This document shows, one piece after another, positions 3,824 to 51,315 of a stretch of 64,000 bases of DNA. Under the pieces are notes generated by a model that did not search any database, was not told where the DNA came from, and saw nothing but the letters and a program-made list of their open reading frames with translations. Location: NCBI GenBank assembly GCA_000004695.1, contig CM000154.2:960001-1024000 (forward strand), read 5' to 3'. Made by a program: the position numbers and the translations under genes. How positions within the stretch are numbered: the first letter of the stretch is position 1; every line of letters begins with the position of its first letter. This stretch comes from Dictyostelium discoideum. Taxonomy: Eukaryota.

Positions 3824-4551
3824 TTAATTTAATAATTTTAATAATTTATCAACTTGTACACCAATTGAGTTATCTTTTTTTGAAGCTTCAGTAATTAAAA
3901 ATTTAATTTTATCAAAATTTGAATTAATAATTTTAAATTTACCACCTGTGACTACAATATCTTCTAAAAGATCTAAACAAGATTTTTTTACAGCTTGATA
4001 TTTTGTATAATTTAAAGTTTCAGCAATTGTTGAGAATAATTTGATAATATTAGTTTCATCAAGGTAAAAGTTAGAACTTTCAGAGCAATCATCTAATGAC
4101 CAAATTGATTTAACGAAACAAGATAAAGCATAAAGTATTGATTGTTGTTCACTCCATAAACTTGAAACTAAATTATTTAATAACGAATCAGCAATTGATA
4201 GATTCTTTAATTTTGTTTCTTTAGTTGATGCTTTGAAAGAGTCGCCAATTACATTATAGATTTGAGTTCTAATTAAAGCTTTCATTGGTCTTAATTTTAA
4301 TTCATCTTTGTCAATCTCTTCTTTAGGGTCAACATTCATTGACTCTTCAGTTGATTGATTAAAAACAAATGGATAAAACTCTTCAATAACTTTATCATAA
4401 ATATCAATAGTATTAAATGATTTTAATATTATTGATAAATTTGTAATTGCTTTTCTTTTATATTCTAAATCATTCTTTTTACATTCATTAAACATAATAT
4501 TTACAATTTCTGATGGTGTTGGAATATTATTACCATTATTACTACTACTAC

Positions 4552-16150: not shown

Positions 16151-17381
16151 TTTTTATTTTTATTTTATTTTTTTAATTATTGTTTTTTTTTAATTATTAA
16201 AAAAATACAAAAAATATTTATTCTTTAAATAGAATTTTTTGTCACAGTAAAAAAAAAAAAAAATAAAAAAGAAATAATTATTAATTAAAAATTTAAAAAA
16301 AAATTTACCACTATCAGTTATTTTTAAACTGATTGTGGGGTAATGTTCAGTTATTTTTGTAAAGTGGTGTTTTTATATTTTTTAATTTATTGCATTGGAA
16401 GAAAGGTTTTAATATTTGCTTTATTTTTTTTTTTTTAATTTTAATACCATTTTTTTATTTTTTTATTTTTTTTAATCAATTTTGAAAATTATTGAAAAAC
16501 TATAATTATCATTTGATTACTTTGAAAAAATTTCTTTTTGGTTTGATTTTCCTATAAATAGAATTTTATCGATATCTGAAAAAAAAAAAAAAAACCACCT
16601 TCATTTGAAAAACTGATTGGTGCATTGGTTATTTTTGTAAATAAAAAAAAAAAAAAAAAAAATTAAATTTTGCATTTATTTTGAATTTTATTTTATTTTA
16701 TTTTTTATTTTTATTTATTAATTTCTAAAATAGTTAAAAATCAGATTGGCAAGATATAATATATTAATAATATAATCATCAATAAAGAATATCAAAAAAT
16801 GAAATTAAAATTTTTTTTTTTCTTTTTAACATTGATTTTATTTTTTTTTTTTTTTTTGTGGATTTAGCATTGATAAATAAAGCAATCAAAAATACACAAT
16901 GATATTTTCAATATATAAAACATAAAAAATGAATGCAATCATTCTGTTTATTTATTTTTTTTTTTTTGTCAAAATTTTATTTAGAATTTATTTAATATTA
17001 ATATTCATTTTTATTATATAAAAATTGATTAAATTTGAAGCTTATTTAATTAAATTGTTTTATTTTTTATTTTTCTTTTATTTTTTTAAATTTCATTTTT
17101 TCAAACATTCAAATTTGACATTAAATAAATAAAAAATTAGAATTTTATCAAACCAATTTTTTTTTTTTTTTTTTTTTTTATCCATTTTTTTATTACTCTC
17201 TTTGTTGCCCAAAATGAAAAAACATTCACAAAAACAACAAAAAATTAATGACTAATAATTAACTTCAAAAAATAAAATTTTGATTAGGAAAAAAATAAAA
17301 TAAAAACAATTTATTTTATTTTCTCTTTTGGTTCTATTTTTTTATTTTTTATTCTCAGATTTTTATAAAATCTATAATTAA

Positions 17382-17414
<33 letters not shown>

Positions 17415-17718
17415 GACGTGGTTTCAAATTATAATTTTCATGTTTTTATTTTTTGATTAAATATTTTGCGTGGCTTTTTTATTTTTTTTTATTCGTTCAC
17501 CACATGCACAGCTAACATAGCTAAACAGTCAACACTTTCATTTTATTTCCCCATTTTCTCACCAACAACAAAATACTATAAAATGAAAAAAATAAATAAA
17601 AAAAATATTAATTCATTTGAAAATAAAACAAATAAAAAAAACAAATAAAAAACAAATAAAACACAAATTTATAAATAAATTCATTATATATAATATAATT
17701 AAAATAAAATAAAATAAA

Positions 17719-18288
17719 ATGTTATCAGATTTTTTCAACAATTTAGCATCATTTTTTAGTAACATATTCTCATTATTTGAAGGTAAAAAACAAACAAGAA
17801 TATTAATGATTGGACTTGATGGTGCAGGTAAATCAACACTTTTATATAAATTAAAATTGGGTGATATTGTTTCAACCGTTCCAACGATTGGATTCAATGT
17901 TGAAACCATTGAATATAAAAATTTATCAATGACAGTTTGGGATGTAGGTGGTCAATATAAAATCCGTGCCTTATGGAAACACTATTACCATGGTACAAAC
18001 GCAATCATCTTTGTAGTAGATAGTACAGATCGTGAAAGAATGGATGAAGTTAAAGAAGAAATTGACACTCTTTTAATTCAAGAAGAATTAAAAGGTATAC
18101 AAATATTAATATTTGCAAATAAACAAGATATGAATAATGCAATGAATACATCAGAAATTGTAGACTCTTTAAATTTAAATTCAATTAAAGATAGAAAATG
18201 GTATGTTCAACCATGCAGTGCTATTAAATCACCACATGGCATCTATGAAGGATTTGATTGGGTTGCAAATTCACTCAATAATAAATAA
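17719..18288 (+). CDS. ARF-family small GTPase (ADP-ribosylation factor-like, 189 aa)
   Basis: P-loop GLDGAGKST, switch/ARF motifs WDVGGQ and NKQD, and C-terminal CSA box (PCSAIKSP). The N-terminus MLSDFF... lacks Gly2, so it is ARL-like rather than a canonical myristoylated ARF. Confidence 0.9.
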
Positions 18289-43619: not shown

Positions 43620-44488
43620 TCAATAATTAATAAAAGTTAGAAATAATATAATAAATAATAATACAAAATTATTTAAAAATAATGAATGATTATTTAAAAT
43701 TGAATTTGAATTTCCATAATAAGTTGGAGCAGTGAGAAATCCTAATTCACCTAAATAGAAACTTATATTTCCATATGGAGTTAACTGAATTGCTAATGAT
43801 AATGTTGGAGATGAATCTAATACCATATTAGTTTCACAATCTATAAAAACAAAATCCAATAAATCACAATCCATTTTTGTACCTTCAAAACATTTATCTC
43901 TAATTACAACTGATACACCATCTGGTTTATATTTACCAATTTGAATTGGATTATTTCTAATAATAATAATAATAATAATAATAAAATTATAATAATAATT
44001 AGTATTGGTAATAATTATTATTTTTGGAAAATAAAAATTAATTTATTGAAAAAAAAAATAAAATAAAATAAATATTTATAATTAACTTACCCTTCTGAAA
44101 TTACACAATAATCTTTTTCAATATAATTAACTCTTTCATGAACAATTTTTGTACCATTAATACACTCATCAAATTTATAATAAATTTTACAATCGTCAGA
44201 GTCGCAATCACAATTTTCAGAGACATAACAATCAGCATCTGTTTTATTACCCATTGATGATCTTTCACATGTTAATTTTGCAAAATGAAACCATAATGTT
44301 CTGAAACAATATTCATTCGATGCAATTAATGCTCTTTGATAATATAATTCACCTGTACAATCTGGATATTGATATTGTTTATATACATATTGTTTCTTTG
44401 AAAAACATTTATTTATATGAAATATATTTATTAATAAATATAATATTACAAGATATTGGAAATTTTTATTATTAAAATGAACTTTCAT
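43620..44488 (-). CDS. Small secreted cysteine-rich protein with C-terminal GPI-anchor-like signal (ponticulin-like; exons 44091..44488 and 43620..43956)
   Basis: Signal peptide (FQYLVILYLLINIFHINKCFS) and 14 Cys in about 240 aa. C-terminal hydrophobic tail NNFVLLFIILFLTFINY after a small-residue stretch. Donor GG|GTAAGT at 44090 and ttattAG acceptor at 43957, phase 2. Confidence 0.45.
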
Positions 44489-44739
44489 TTATTTTATTTA
44501 TAAAACTATTGATTATTTAATTTTTATTTTTTATTTTTATTATTATTACTATTTCTATTATTAAAAGTTTTTTTTTATTGTTGTTGTATTTTTTTTATTG
44601 CTGTTGTAATTTTTTTTATTTTTTATTTTTTGTATTTTTTTTTTTTTTTTTTTTGAGTGCGAGTGTGTGAGTATATATATATATATTTATATAAAGGGTG
44701 TTTGGGAAAAAAATTAAAAAAAAATGTGTTATTTCGTTG

Positions 44740-45111
44740 AAAGAATTATCAAAAAAATTAATGATAATAATTTTAATTTTACAAACAAAAAAAAATAATT
44801 ATAATAATTAAAGGAAAAAAAAAAAAATCTTAATTTTTTAAATAAAAAAAATTAAGTTGGATAATAAGATTAAGATTTTCAAAGTTTGTTGTTTTAAATT
44901 TGGTTCTTAAAAAAAGTAAAAAATAAAAAAAAAAAAGATTTAAAATATAAAATATAAAATATAAAATATAAAATATAAAATATAAAAATTTATATTGATA
45001 ATAAAAATAATAAAAATAATAATAATAAATTTGAATAAATAAAAAAAATAATTAATTTTAAATAAATAAAAAAAAAACAATTAATTTAAATATATAAAAA
45101 ATAATAATTTG

Positions 45112-45143
<32 letters not shown>

Positions 45144-45720
45144 TTAAATAAAAAAAATAATAAGAAAAAAGAATGATAAATAAAACTTAACTGAATCCAT
45201 TTATGATGTTTTTTTTTCTTTCCATTAGTGGTACTTCTATCTCACAAAAATAATTATAATTTATACCCCCACCCTCAAACCCACACCCACACCAAAAAAT
45301 ATTAATATGATACATATAATCAACATTCAGTTAATATCAATGCCAATTCATATGTGCTATTTTTAAAAACAACCAAAAAAAACAAAAAAAAAAAAAAAAC
45401 CATGAATTATTTTGTGTGAGTGTGGTTTGAGGGTGTTTGGCATTTAAAATAATTGTTTTTTATCGACAAATTACAAAGAAAAATAATTTAAATTTTTAAA
45501 ACATGTATAAAAAAAAAAAAAAAAAGTTATAATCTAATATCTCAAATTTATACATATTTTAATGACATTGAAATTCAAGATTAAATTTTTTATATCGAAT
45601 TTGGGGATTAAAAATAAAAAAAATAAAAAAAAAAAAATGTCTTTATTGTGCAATAATTTATTTTTATTTTTTTCTATTTTTACCCTGTTTGTTTTTTTTT
45701 TTATGAAAATAATATTTGGT

Positions 45721-45758
<38 letters not shown>

Positions 45759-47870
45759 GAAAAAAAAATTATTTGTGGTCGATGAAATCGAATTCCTGTA
45801 GATTTCGTGAGATATTATGATAATATATTTAAAATATTATTATTGAAGTACCTACTTGCTAAAATGAAACATCTTTTTTCATTTTAGCATCACCTAAAAA
45901 TTTTTTAAAAAAAAAAAAAACTAATGTTTCACTTTTGAGTTGACTCTTTGTTTTTTCGCATGGATCTTTAATCCTAAAATTAAAATATGTGTGCACATGT
46001 ATGCAAAGATTTTAATTTTAATTTTAATTTTTTTTTATTTTATTTTATTTTATATTATTTTTTTTTTTTTTTCTATTATCGAAGTCAAATAAATTTTCTC
46101 ATATTAAACCGCTCTTATATCAATGGCATGCTCTACTATAGAGAGATGACTCATAGAGTCACCGTAGTGCGGTCCCTTTTGCGGATTTTTTTTTATACAG
46201 CTAAATTAACCACATCCAAAATCAACTCTAACAATTAAAACCAATACTCTTATCACAATCATGATCAACCTATTCAATCACCAATTCACAATCAGAATTA
46301 CTTGGTGAAGATATAACTTGATCTTCCATTTATTAAAATTAAGTTAACCATTGTGGTATTAGGATGTTTTTTGATAAAAGAAGTACTTTTGTAAACTTAC
46401 CACCACCACCAATTTAATTGTATTTATATAGGTTCAGTAATGGCAGATTGTTAAAAACTTTTAAAATACTTTTGGAACGAAAACAATGATAAAGTAAACA
46501 AAATTATTAAAATCATATATTCAACAGATTATTTGAAATTTGAAAAACAAAGATTTGAAAAGAAAAAATGTGCAGATACAAAAATTAAAAGAGACATTAC
46601 AAACATATCATGTTAAAATATCCATTAACTCAAGCTATGGGATGTGATATTAGGTTAACCAATCAACAATCCCAAGAACTCTACAAATTAATAATCGTTA
46701 CGTGGTGTCATTTCAAATTAGAAAAAATTTATTGTCATTGGTAAATATACATAATTCACATACACATTGATGATGGTGATGATTATGATGATGATTAAAT
46801 TATTAAATTTTTTATTTTATTATTATCAGTTTATAAAAACGCAAAATTTAATTCAGGTTTAAAGGTGATAATCATCGTACGATTAATGAAGATTATACAT
46901 CAAAAGTAAGTATTATATTCATATGATCTACACAAATCAAAAACTATATCACAAACTAACCAGAATTATTTTTTTCATAAATGTATGTACAGCGTTGTTG
47001 CAAGTGCGTCATTTCAACTAAAGACATTGTAATGGGAATGTTTTCAAAGAGAAAAAGGTGAATTCAACCCAGATAATCATCTTTAAAAAATTCATCAAAG
47101 ACAATCCTCAATTCCGACATCAACCTCTTGAACAATAAAAATATTATTACCAATTAAATTTTACAAACAAAAAAAAGAAAAAAGAAAAAAAGAAAAGAAA
47201 AAAAAAGAAAAAAGAAAATTCAACTTTTTTCGTTGAAAGAATTATTCAAAAAATTAATAATAATTTTAATTTTACAAACAAAAAAAAAAAAATTGTATAA
47301 ATAAAAGTACAAATTAATTCAAAGTTTTGTGTTTTTTTGTTTTTGTTTTTTTTGGTTGTTTTTAAAAATAGCTCATCATAATAATTGGCATTGATATTAA
47401 CTGAAGGTTGATTATATGTATCATATTAATAATATTTTTTGGTTGGGTGTTTTTGAGTGTGGTGGTACAAATTATAATTACTTGTTATTTTGTGTGTGTA
47501 TGTGTGAGAATAGAATGATATATAAGTACTACTAATGGGAAGAAAAAAAACATCATTAATGGATTCAGTTAAGTTTTATTTATCGTTCTTTTTTTCTTAT
47601 TATTTTTTTCATTTAGTTATTAATTTTTTTTTTTTTTTTTCAAAATTATTATTTATTTTATATATTTAAAATTAATTATTTTTTTATTTATTTATTTATT
47701 ATTTATTTTTATTTTTTATTTTTTTATTTATTTTATTTTTTAAAAAAAAAAAAAAAAAGTTATAATCTAATGTCTCAAATTTATACAAATGATATTTTAA
47801 AGACTTTGAAATTCAAGATTAAAATTTTTATATCAAATTTGCGAATAAAAAACAAAATGGCCATTTTTAA
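44740..47870. mobile_element. Composite repeat block: module C-B-A occurs twice (C 44745/47225; B 45140-45365 vs 47375-47615 in inverted orientation; A 45525-45630/47752-47860) around a 2-kb ORF-free, GC-richer core (45780-47100); candidate non-autonomous DNA transposon / foldback element
   Basis: Read directly: TAAAACTTAACTGAATCCATT(T)ATGATG(T)nCTT(T)CCATTAGT(G/A)GTACT and the following CCCACC...ATATGATACATATAATCAAC(A/C)TTCAGTTAATATCAATGCCAATT at about 45181-45360 are the reverse complement of 47380-47590. The flanking C (CGTTGAAAGAATTAT(T)CAAAAAATTAATGATAATAATTTTAATTTTACAAACAAAAAAA) and A (AAAAGTTATAATCTAATRTCTCAAATTTATACA...GAAATTCAAGATTAAA) segments are direct. The core has no ORF over 85 codons and a perfect hairpin GCTAAAATGAAA-catctttt-TTTCATTTTAGC at 45858-45888. 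Confidence 0.45.
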
Positions 47871-48143
47871 TTTAATGTTGTGTTTATTGAAAATTTTATA
47901 TGATAATTCGTGGTACTATTTTTTTTTTTATTTGAAAAACAAAAAAAATAAAAATTAAAAATATTACTTTTTATTAATATAATAATAACAAAGCAAACTA
48001 AATTGAATTTTTTTTTTTTTGTTTCTTTTTTTCTTTTTTTTTTCTTTTTTTTTCTTTTTTTTTTTCTTTATTCTTTTTTTTCTTTTTCTTGAAATTATTT
48101 GAAAAAAAAGACACAATAAAATAAATTGTAACTAGATTCGTAA

Positions 48144-48330
48144 TTAATTAATATCTTTACATGTTATTGGTTGAGGTTTAATTTCAAACAAACTACTTCC
48201 ATGGCAACTATTCAATATATTGTATGGTGTGTAGGTGGAAATATTATTATTGACAATTTCATTAATAAAATTAAATTTATTGTCTCCATTATTGTTTTTA
48301 TCAGTTCTACTATTAATATTATTATTTTTG

Positions 48331-48367
<37 letters not shown>

Positions 48368-48383
48368 TACAACTATTAATATA

Positions 48384-48462
<79 letters not shown>

Positions 48463-48590
48463 TTATTATAATTATTATTATTAACGATTGAATCTTGTTT
48501 ATTTTTGAAGAAATATTGTTTACATAATTTTAAAGTTGGTAATAAATTTTCAACATTTTGAATTTCGAAATAGTCATTAAAAGAAGACAT
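48144..48590 (-). CDS. Asn-rich hypothetical protein (148 aa)
   Basis: ORF with unique N- and C-terminal segments flanking an (AAT)n poly-N tract; no motif recognised; could be spurious. Confidence 0.25.
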
Positions 48591-50491: not shown

Positions 50492-51315
50492 ATTTTTATT
50501 TATTTTTTATTTTTTTTTTTTTCCTGCATTGGCACAGGTCACCTTCCCAAATAAATATCCCAAATAAAAAAAAAAAAAGCCATTCTTATGATATGATCAA
50601 AAAATAGGGGATTTTTTTCAATATCTTATTTGGCTCAAAATTATAATAATAAAAAAAAAAAAAAACAAATTAAATAAATAATAAAAAAAAAAAAAAACTC
50701 TTAATAATATTTTTCAAACTTTTTTTTTTTTTTTTTCAAATAATATATTAAAAAATATCCCCCATAAAAATTTTTTTTTTTTTTTCACAATTAAGTTCTT
50801 TTATAATATATATATATAAAAAATATATATATTTTTAAAATAAATAAACCAAAAAAAAAAAAAAAAAAACCAAAAAAAAAAAAAAACCCCTTTTTTATTT
50901 TTTTTTTGGGGGGGGGGGAATCAAGTTTTTTAAAAAAAAAAAAACACACACACACATTCACCTACATAAAAAAAAGGGAATAGAAAAGAGAAAAAAAAAA
51001 GGATATCAATAAATACAATAAAAAAATGGAGGCATTTAGAAATATTAAAAATAAGTTTGCAAAACATATGGCCGCTAGGAAAATTAGAGTACTATGGGCC
51101 GATTATTTAAAAGTTGCAGACATAAAGTAGGTACTAAACAATTTTCATCTCTTTCTTTCATTTTTATATCTCATCCAATCTCCTTTCATAAACAATACTA
51201 TATTTAAATCATATCATACACATAACACTTTAAATTTATAATGTTATAATAACTAATATTATAAATTTTTTTTTTTTTTTTTTTTTTAAAAACATTATAA
51301 AGAGATTCACATTTA

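Follow-up and report, generated by a model that had tools for sequence, protein, structure and literature searches.

A probable old local duplication with an inverted centre around a decayed TnpB/Fanzor-like fragment in an intergenic spacer of Dictyostelium discoideum

The DNA considered here is a window of 64,000 nucleotides (nt) from the genome of Dictyostelium discoideum (assembly GCA_000004695.1, contig CM000154.2, positions 960,001 to 1,024,000 of the forward strand), to which all coordinates below refer unless another locus is named. Its base composition is of the Dictyostelium type, with a G+C content of 12-35% per kilobase, and its open reading frames (ORFs) contain much poly-N and poly-Q. 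A composite repeat of three modules, named C, B and A, fills the entire 3.65-kb spacer between two minus-strand genes of the window. The first of these genes (~43623-44491), placed by mapping a gene call of a second assembly to the window, encodes a small cysteine-rich protein of 244 amino acids (aa), while the second (48144-48590) is an ORF of 148 aa that was also called in that assembly. A non-coding C-B-A segment of spacer DNA, about 0.65-0.9 kb long, is present twice, with the ~430-bp B inverted in one copy, and the arrangement probably goes back to a single, old and local rearrangement. Between the two copies lie 1.6 kb of DNA, made up of a unique stretch and a truncated fragment of a TnpB/Fanzor-type transposon gene.

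Copy 1 is read in the order C, a 200-nt spacer (x1), B, a 92-nt spacer (x2), and A. Its module C (44729-44812, plus strand) lies in the upstream region of the minus-strand gene ending at ~44491 and is followed by x1 (44813-45012), A/T low-complexity DNA that is mostly microsatellite, including (AAAATAT)n. Module B (45013-45415, plus strand) contains a C/A-rich box at 45265-45296; x2 (45416-45507) follows, and module A (45508-45619, plus strand) completes the copy. Neither spacer has a counterpart in copy 2. Across the boundary of B and x2, the final bases of the former and the first ones of the latter (45406-45441) repeat the C/A-rich box of B, 110 nt away, in inverted orientation. In copy 2, module C (47225-47305, plus strand), the inverted B (47309-47741, minus strand) and module A (47741-47857, plus strand) abut one another, such that the alignments of C and B overlap by ~5 nt at their junction. 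This B carries a (CA)n-type insertion relative to copy 1, and the second A is situated in the 3' flank of the minus-strand gene at 48144-48590. The initial annotation of this DNA had placed three modules in the same order ~2.4 kb apart, and the blastn matches bear this out, the two copies of C being 2496 nt apart and those of A 2233 nt.

The similarity of the paired modules was measured by blastn with the dust filter on. The two copies of B aligned in inverted orientation at 80.8% identity over ~449 columns (363 identical; expectation value (E) 1.5e-81), while A and C aligned as direct repeats at 88% (103/117; E 1e-32) and 87% (E 8e-20), respectively. With substitutions alone counted, identity of B is ~94%, and its unique centre (45160-45372) is likewise ~94% identical, with several insertions or deletions (indels) besides. 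The initial annotation had described B as an inverted repeat of ~230 bp at ~90% identity; its inversion stands, but 230 bp is only the unique centre of the ~430-bp arm. Expressed as substitution divergence, the modules differ by 11.9% (C, 13/109), 8.0% (A, 9/112) and 6.2% (B, 24/387).

BLAST statistics are untrustworthy in DNA of 80% A+T, and for this reason the ungapped matches were rescored using a composition-aware log-odds scheme. Scores of 103.9 and 68.1 bits were obtained for B, 60.7 and 57.4 bits for A, and 38.5 and 37.5 bits for C, to be compared with an empirical null of 47.8 bits, which is the highest score that the region reached when both strands of 19 kb of unrelated intergenic DNA were compared with it. 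Modules B and A thus lie far over the low-complexity null, whereas the single-match scores of C fall under it. Module C rests not on score but on the 18-mer TTTCGTTGAAAGAATTAT, with exactly two occurrences in the 64 kb (44732 and 47228; 0.04 expected), and on an exact 26-mer common to both of its copies (at 44769 and 47262). The module repeats are confirmed as real, and the notion that they are mere low-complexity A/T matches, against which the initial annotation had cautioned, can be set aside.

Four other loci were available for comparison: L001 and L002, which carry paralogues of the TnpB/Fanzor-like relic; L003, from D. purpureum (GL871109.1); and L004, which is this locus as represented in a second D. 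discoideum assembly. The first three total ~55 kb (~75 kb with L004), and the Dictyostelium sequence searched outside the locus, comprising the rest of the window and L001-L003, amounts to ~120 kb. No further copy of A, B or C was found by blastn in the window, none was found at L001-L003, and L004 holds the modules only as the same locus. In a sensitive search, the unique parts of A, B and C gave only low-complexity matches in L001 and L002 and nothing in the D. purpureum locus.

The second assembly (GCA_054883475.1) was reached by exact look-up of the 148-aa ORF at 48144-48590 (minus strand). Its locus forms a single collinear match of 20.5 kb to window positions 38129-58600 at 99.64% identity, and its spacer, in which zero genes are called, has the same module arrangement and orientation as the window. 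Between 44700 and 47870, the two assemblies differ by one poly-A indel and three single-nucleotide polymorphisms (SNPs). All three SNPs fall within 16 nt (45368-45383), in the A-rich right end of B copy 1. The initial annotation had suggested looking for a difference in orientation of the segment between the B arms; no such inversion polymorphism is seen between the two D. discoideum assemblies (n=2 genomes), which are collinear here. Elsewhere in this comparison, approximately 25 of the 42 merged differences sit in ~180 bp (50749-50924) that surround a G11 run (50907-50918), while identity over the remainder of the 20 kb is ~99.9%; this cluster is either a hypervariable spot or an assembly problem.

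The core between the two copies had been viewed as moderately GC-richer than its surroundings and devoid of coding capacity. Its G+C content is indeed 0.249 at 46001-47000 vs 0.157-0.177 in the flanking kilobases, and it contains no intact ORF, but a recognizable TnpB/Fanzor-like pseudogene occupies 46412-47123 on the plus strand. The frames of 46300-47100 show the peptide 'INEDYTSK', then an intron of the form GTAAGT...CAG, and then 'RCCKC'. When stitched together, the translation matched the Pfam family PF07282 (Cas12f1-like TNB domain) with 18 bits (E 0.003), below threshold, and in a large protein database it found two hypothetical proteins of D. cf. discoideum, P0001 (E 4e-21) and P0002 (E 4e-9). 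When these two proteins were compared by tblastn with the entire window, this locus alone matched. The best segment for P0001 was 46440-46598, where 53 aa aligned at 81% identity across an in-frame stop (E 5e-21); 46852-47043 (E 7e-6) and 47076-47123 matched as well. At the nucleotide level, the relic aligned by blastn with L001 9968-11092 at 82-88% identity and also with L002, and a three-way alignment was made.

The nature of the family was approached through its better preserved members. P0002 passed the gathering score of PF07282 (29.1 bits; gathering score 26.3), while P0001 scored 23.1 bits and P0004, a third relative from D. purpureum with the textbook motif 'VDEHVTSQRCPLC...GCGHRDIIAAKNIA', 23.6 bits. 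A profile built from the three proteins found only Cas12f and TnpB chains in PDB, at an equivalent C-terminal site (E 0.03-0.05), and the NCBIfam model guided_TnpB matched all three at model positions 333-387 of 389. The predicted structure of the family, made from the three-sequence alignment, had a mean predicted local distance difference test (pLDDT) score of 36 and offered no usable fold. To judge from these matches, the relic family is the C-terminal part of a TnpB/Fanzor-type protein.

The copy in the window is, by its reading frames, dead. It carries an in-frame stop at 46452-46454, frameshifts, and a 55-nt deletion in the second exon, and the 'HRDDNA' segment (RuvC-III motif) is deleted; at its 3' end it is cut at ~47115-47123, ~135 nt short of where the similarity between L001 and L002 ends. 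A complete RuvC domain with its three catalytic motifs in an intact ORF is not present in the window copy, the N-terminal half is present in none of the copies found (which comprise the C-terminal half only, ~1.2 kb or less), and no transposase partner, guide (omega) RNA or clear element ends were found for the relic. The DNA at its 3' end (47040-47180) folds in an ordinary manner (z = -0.6). The stretch YKNAKFNSGLKVIIIV was considered as a TnpB beta-strand, which proved partly wrong: the paralogues give the true frame, with the 55-nt deletion at that point. Remnants of two introns are retained, the second (46906-46992) with GTAAGT...CAG. Intron 1 of the paralogues has long (AAT)n/(AAAT)n expansions (L001 10300-10540; L002 10260-10520), the remnant in the window (~46743-46829) being much shorter.

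The relation of this relic to the surrounding modules follows from the paralogues. The window relic and L001 have a common 5' boundary, ATTTAATTGT..., and the boundaries of homology in L001 show a possible imperfect inverted repeat of 14/17 positions. Similarity of the window to L001 and L002 is confined to the segment from 46412 to ~47115-47123, and the arms are not shared. On this comparison of sequences, the relic family has its own ends, unrelated to B, and the B arms form no part of the Fanzor-like element, because its paralogues at L001 and L002 stand without the three modules. It is thus the decayed pseudogene in the core, and not the B arms, that connects the locus with a transposon. 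Directly after the truncated end of the relic, at 47137-47215 (plus strand), a third partial copy of the tail of C (47151-47176) is followed by a purine tract of (A5-8G)n; 47137-47182 matches 47248-47292 at 85%, and the 26-mer of C occurs there with 3 mismatches. The tract at 47165-47213 is also the reverse complement of a (T5-10C)n tract at 48037-48085, a pairing that is probably due to chance because its 31 bits lie within the low-complexity null.

Among dictyostelids, Fanzor hosts were listed by Bao and Jurka (2013) as D. fasciculatum and Polysphondylium pallidum, D. discoideum not being listed (PMC3627910), and no further literature report on this kind of relic turned up. The relic is a new member of the Fanzor/TnpB kind, in a species outside that host list. 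A solitary 131-aa C-terminal fragment of the TnpB/Fanzor-like type also lies at L003 6070-6462, amid unrelated housekeeping genes, and therefore the family left fossils in D. purpureum too. The most notable by-product of this analysis is that intron-bearing remains of TnpB/Fanzor-derived genes occur in D. discoideum, in D. cf. discoideum and in D. purpureum, which could help in annotating repeats and in dating when Fanzor was active in social amoebae.

The left part of the core (45620-46411) is unique non-coding DNA. A six-frame Pfam scan of 45600-46430 returned no match, on which ground a second transposon protein there was rejected, and no Rfam match of note, no remnant of a neighbouring gene, and nothing shared with L001 or L002 past low complexity was found in it. 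The perfect 12-bp-stem hairpin noted earlier at 45858-45888 is real and slightly longer, with a 13-bp stem (45857-45869 / 45877-45889), a 7-nt loop and a folding energy of -13.5 kcal/mol (z = -4.9). It sits in otherwise featureless A/T-rich DNA, belongs to no Rfam family and is shorter than a microRNA (miRNA) precursor; a Helitron end at this hairpin was considered and rejected, as by eye a CTRR-T terminus is not in the right place on either strand. The GC-rich, oligo-T-terminated stretch reported at 46150-46200 likewise exists, as the end of a G+C-richer patch (46080-46200) that closes in T9, but its structure is ordinary, 46150-46197 folding like shuffled sequence (z = -0.3, -0.7). Across the wider search for structured RNA, no transfer RNA (tRNA) genes were found by tRNA scan, and an Rfam scan gave zero matches at gathering scores and, with E up to 10, three chance-level matches only. 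Within B copy 1, a local stem pairs ~45270-45300 with 45411-45441 (fold of 45160-45450, z = -2.9). It is not a conserved structure, because copy 2 is without an equivalent (z = -0.9), and an miRNA or long hairpin in B was rejected on the same grounds.

The most economical explanation for the order and orientation of the modules is that C-B-A was duplicated directly and that one copy has its B inverted. The blocks are collinear, they occur at one locus within the sequence searched, and their substitution divergence is similar, as expected of a local duplication, and these features support the inversion-bearing duplication that the initial annotation had offered as one of its possibilities. A history in which the interior was flipped by recombination between the arms is no simpler, as it yields C-B-C' ... 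A'-B'-A (where a prime denotes the reverse complement). The spacer was also considered as a remnant of a tandem gene duplication, and this was rejected after tblastn of the ORFs of the flanking genes against 44500-48140 gave no match. Local duplications of comparable kind are present at other fetched loci, in tandem at 97% identity in L001 and as 430-bp inverted copies at 86% in L002, and with both direct and inverted examples at hand such events are ordinary in these genomes. The former is a duplication of ~1.9 kb (L001 14233-16072 / 16170-18174) that spans two called genes and adjoins a tRNA-Phe gene (18206-18281). The latter comprises L002 9423-9852 (D. cf. discoideum), ~110 nt upstream of the start of the relic paralogue (~9963), and its inverted counterpart (86.5%) at 1293-1717, a segment unlike module B that is located 7.7 kb away near two tandem tRNA-Asp genes (3983-4205).

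As to mechanism, a single complex copying event could have joined the three pieces by template switching or break repair, and a single event is suggested because the substitution divergence is alike across C, A and B (6.2-11.9%). Alternatively, a plain duplication may have been followed by an inversion with sequence lost or gained at both breakpoints. The abutting modules of copy 2, the spacers of copy 1 and the inverted motif at the start of x2 are the kind of trace expected where pieces were joined as a patchwork or where breakpoints received templated filler; the absence of spacers from copy 2 and the templated motif agree with both routes and do not show which copy came first. The duplication might possibly have accompanied arrival of the 1.6-kb insert, leaving old spacer on either side. 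Nothing at the locus appears to be mobile now, and it would best be regarded as the scar of a rearrangement rather than as an active or new mobile element.

Several points weigh against this history of local duplication. The search having covered ~120 kb outside the locus, a dispersed family of C-B-A segments is possible; from the D. discoideum locus alone, one could deduce neither which copy is original nor how old the event is, and in protein searches for an outgroup locus the Nudix ORF of the window had no matches and its CLU-domain ORF had best matches of <=55% identity. Microhomologies at the junctions fall in A/T low complexity and carry little weight. In addition, the divergence of B is a little lower than that of C, which leaves room for two steps or for gene conversion.

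The first of these points leads to the rival that survives best, although it is unlikely: C-B-A could be a member of a dispersed repeat family (a fragment of thug, DDT or Tdd, or a solo terminal repeat), two copies of which landed 2.4 kb apart by chance, one being an internal-inversion variant. The DNA transposons known from D. discoideum account for ~1.5% of its genome (PMC5633606), and a low-copy family would easily be missed in the ~120 kb searched outside the locus. Against it, no additional C-B-A copy occurs in the window or L001-L003, and the internal spacing of the two copies is unequal, with 200 nt and 92 nt of extra DNA in copy 1 only. Moreover, the intronic miRNA of thug-S is not in the window, and the modules are largely ordinary A/T-rich spacer with promoter-type G boxes.

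Those boxes are the basis for a second proposal, one compatible with duplication, in which the duplicated modules would have been kept as promoter or enhancer blocks with putative G-box binding factor (GBF) sites, acting on the small secreted-protein gene next to them or on a transcript that is not annotated. The GBF response element is described by the consensus (T/G)G(T/G)G(T/G)G(T/G); sites in pairs are reported from duplicated promoters of small-protein genes (PMC2257962). B copy 1 contains the densest cluster of this consensus in the window, seven overlapping KGKGKGK matches on the minus strand at 45265-45293, and B copy 2 retains three matches, with plus-strand G-rich boxes at 47444-47450 and 47491-47499. 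Two paired GT-rich boxes, GAGTGCGAGTGTGTGAG ... GGGTGTTTGGG, are also found at 44655-44712, ~170-220 nt upstream of the start of the 244-aa gene. The boxes at 44655-44712 resemble GBF sites and also the box at 45406-45441. However, both flanking features turn their 3' ends towards copy 2, which leaves it without a visible gene to serve, and within B the G boxes belong to the portions with lower conservation. Conservation for a regulatory role is quite improbable; the modules may simply be ordinary promoter DNA that became duplicated, and the G-rich boxes in B would at most retain a role as ordinary promoter elements.

A transposon bounded by B was the other reading offered by the initial annotation, in the form of a miniature inverted-repeat transposable element (MITE) or foldback element with B as its terminal inverted repeats. 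In its present form, the B copies would be the long terminal inverted repeats of a non-autonomous or foldback DNA transposon extending over ~45013-47741, with the Fanzor-like fragment as cargo. The ~430-bp arms are truly inverted and do bracket a transposon-derived pseudogene, and Fanzor genes are known to be carried by DNA transposons that have terminal inverted repeats, among them Sola2 elements of other dictyostelids (PMC3627910).

The flanks speak otherwise. An insertion bounded by terminal inverted repeats is expected to have flanks unrelated to its interior. At this locus, however, module C is found beyond the left arm and again on the inner side of the right one, module A is found on the inner side of the left arm and again beyond the right one, and both are direct repeats. 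The simple terminal-repeat reading of B is ruled out because C and A straddle the arms. Other findings point the same way: the relic paralogues at L001 and L002 are without B-like arms and have boundaries of their own, possibly with a short imperfect inverted repeat; the ~120 kb of Dictyostelium sequence searched beyond the locus yielded no additional B; and no target-site duplication, for which the initial annotation had proposed looking just outside the arms, is visible. The outer ends of the arms fade into A/T low complexity without a sharp terminus, and it is because the arm ends lie in such DNA that a target-site duplication is not definable. A transposon delimited by B is thus highly unlikely. 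It is equally doubtful that the B arms and the relic are what remains of a DNA transposon lineage, so far undescribed, that carried Fanzor and had long inverted repeats in the D. discoideum / D. purpureum group, in which case the arrangement of C and A would record an aberrant transposition or excision-repair event.

Local duplication with inversion of B remains the probable history, and with it the locus would exemplify how a Dictyostelium intergenic spacer grows ~fourfold: a transposon fragment was gained, and old spacer was duplicated and in part inverted. Its significance for biology at large is small.

Comparison with known systems places the locus closest to some of these and apart from others. 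Like MITEs and foldback elements, it has two inverted arms of ~430 bp around a ~1.9-kb core without an intact ORF, but its flanks are tied to its interior by C and A, no further copy occurs in the ~120 kb searched outside it, and it has no definable ends or target-site duplication. With thug-S/T, DDT-A/B/S and Tdd-4/5 it has in common the same kind of genome, and thug-S, described as intron-containing with an intronic miRNA (miRNA_can_D3 5p/3p) (PMC4894637), is intron-bearing like the relic family. Identity with thug-S was rejected, as miRNA_can_D3 5p/3p is not in the window, L001 or L002 at up to 4 substitutions. The resemblance to Fanzor/TnpB proteins (OrfB of IS200/IS605-IS607) resides in the core pseudogene and its paralogues, which have the C-terminal '...INEDYTSQRCCKC...C...HRD.NA..N' zinc-ribbon/RuvC-III region, with P0002 passing PF07282 and all PDB and NCBIfam matches being Cas12f or TnpB at the equivalent C-terminal position. 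They differ in that the copies here comprise the C-terminal half only, and that of the window, with its stop, frameshifts and deletions, is without the RuvC-III motif. Compared with other local segmental duplications bearing an inverted internal segment, the present one is small (about 0.6-0.9 kb) and old (6-12% substitutions), and its mechanism is read from anatomy only. It agrees with them in its collinear blocks at a single locus, one of them inverted and all similarly diverged, and in having tight junctions in one copy while the other contains extra junction sequence that is partly an inverted copy of nearby DNA.

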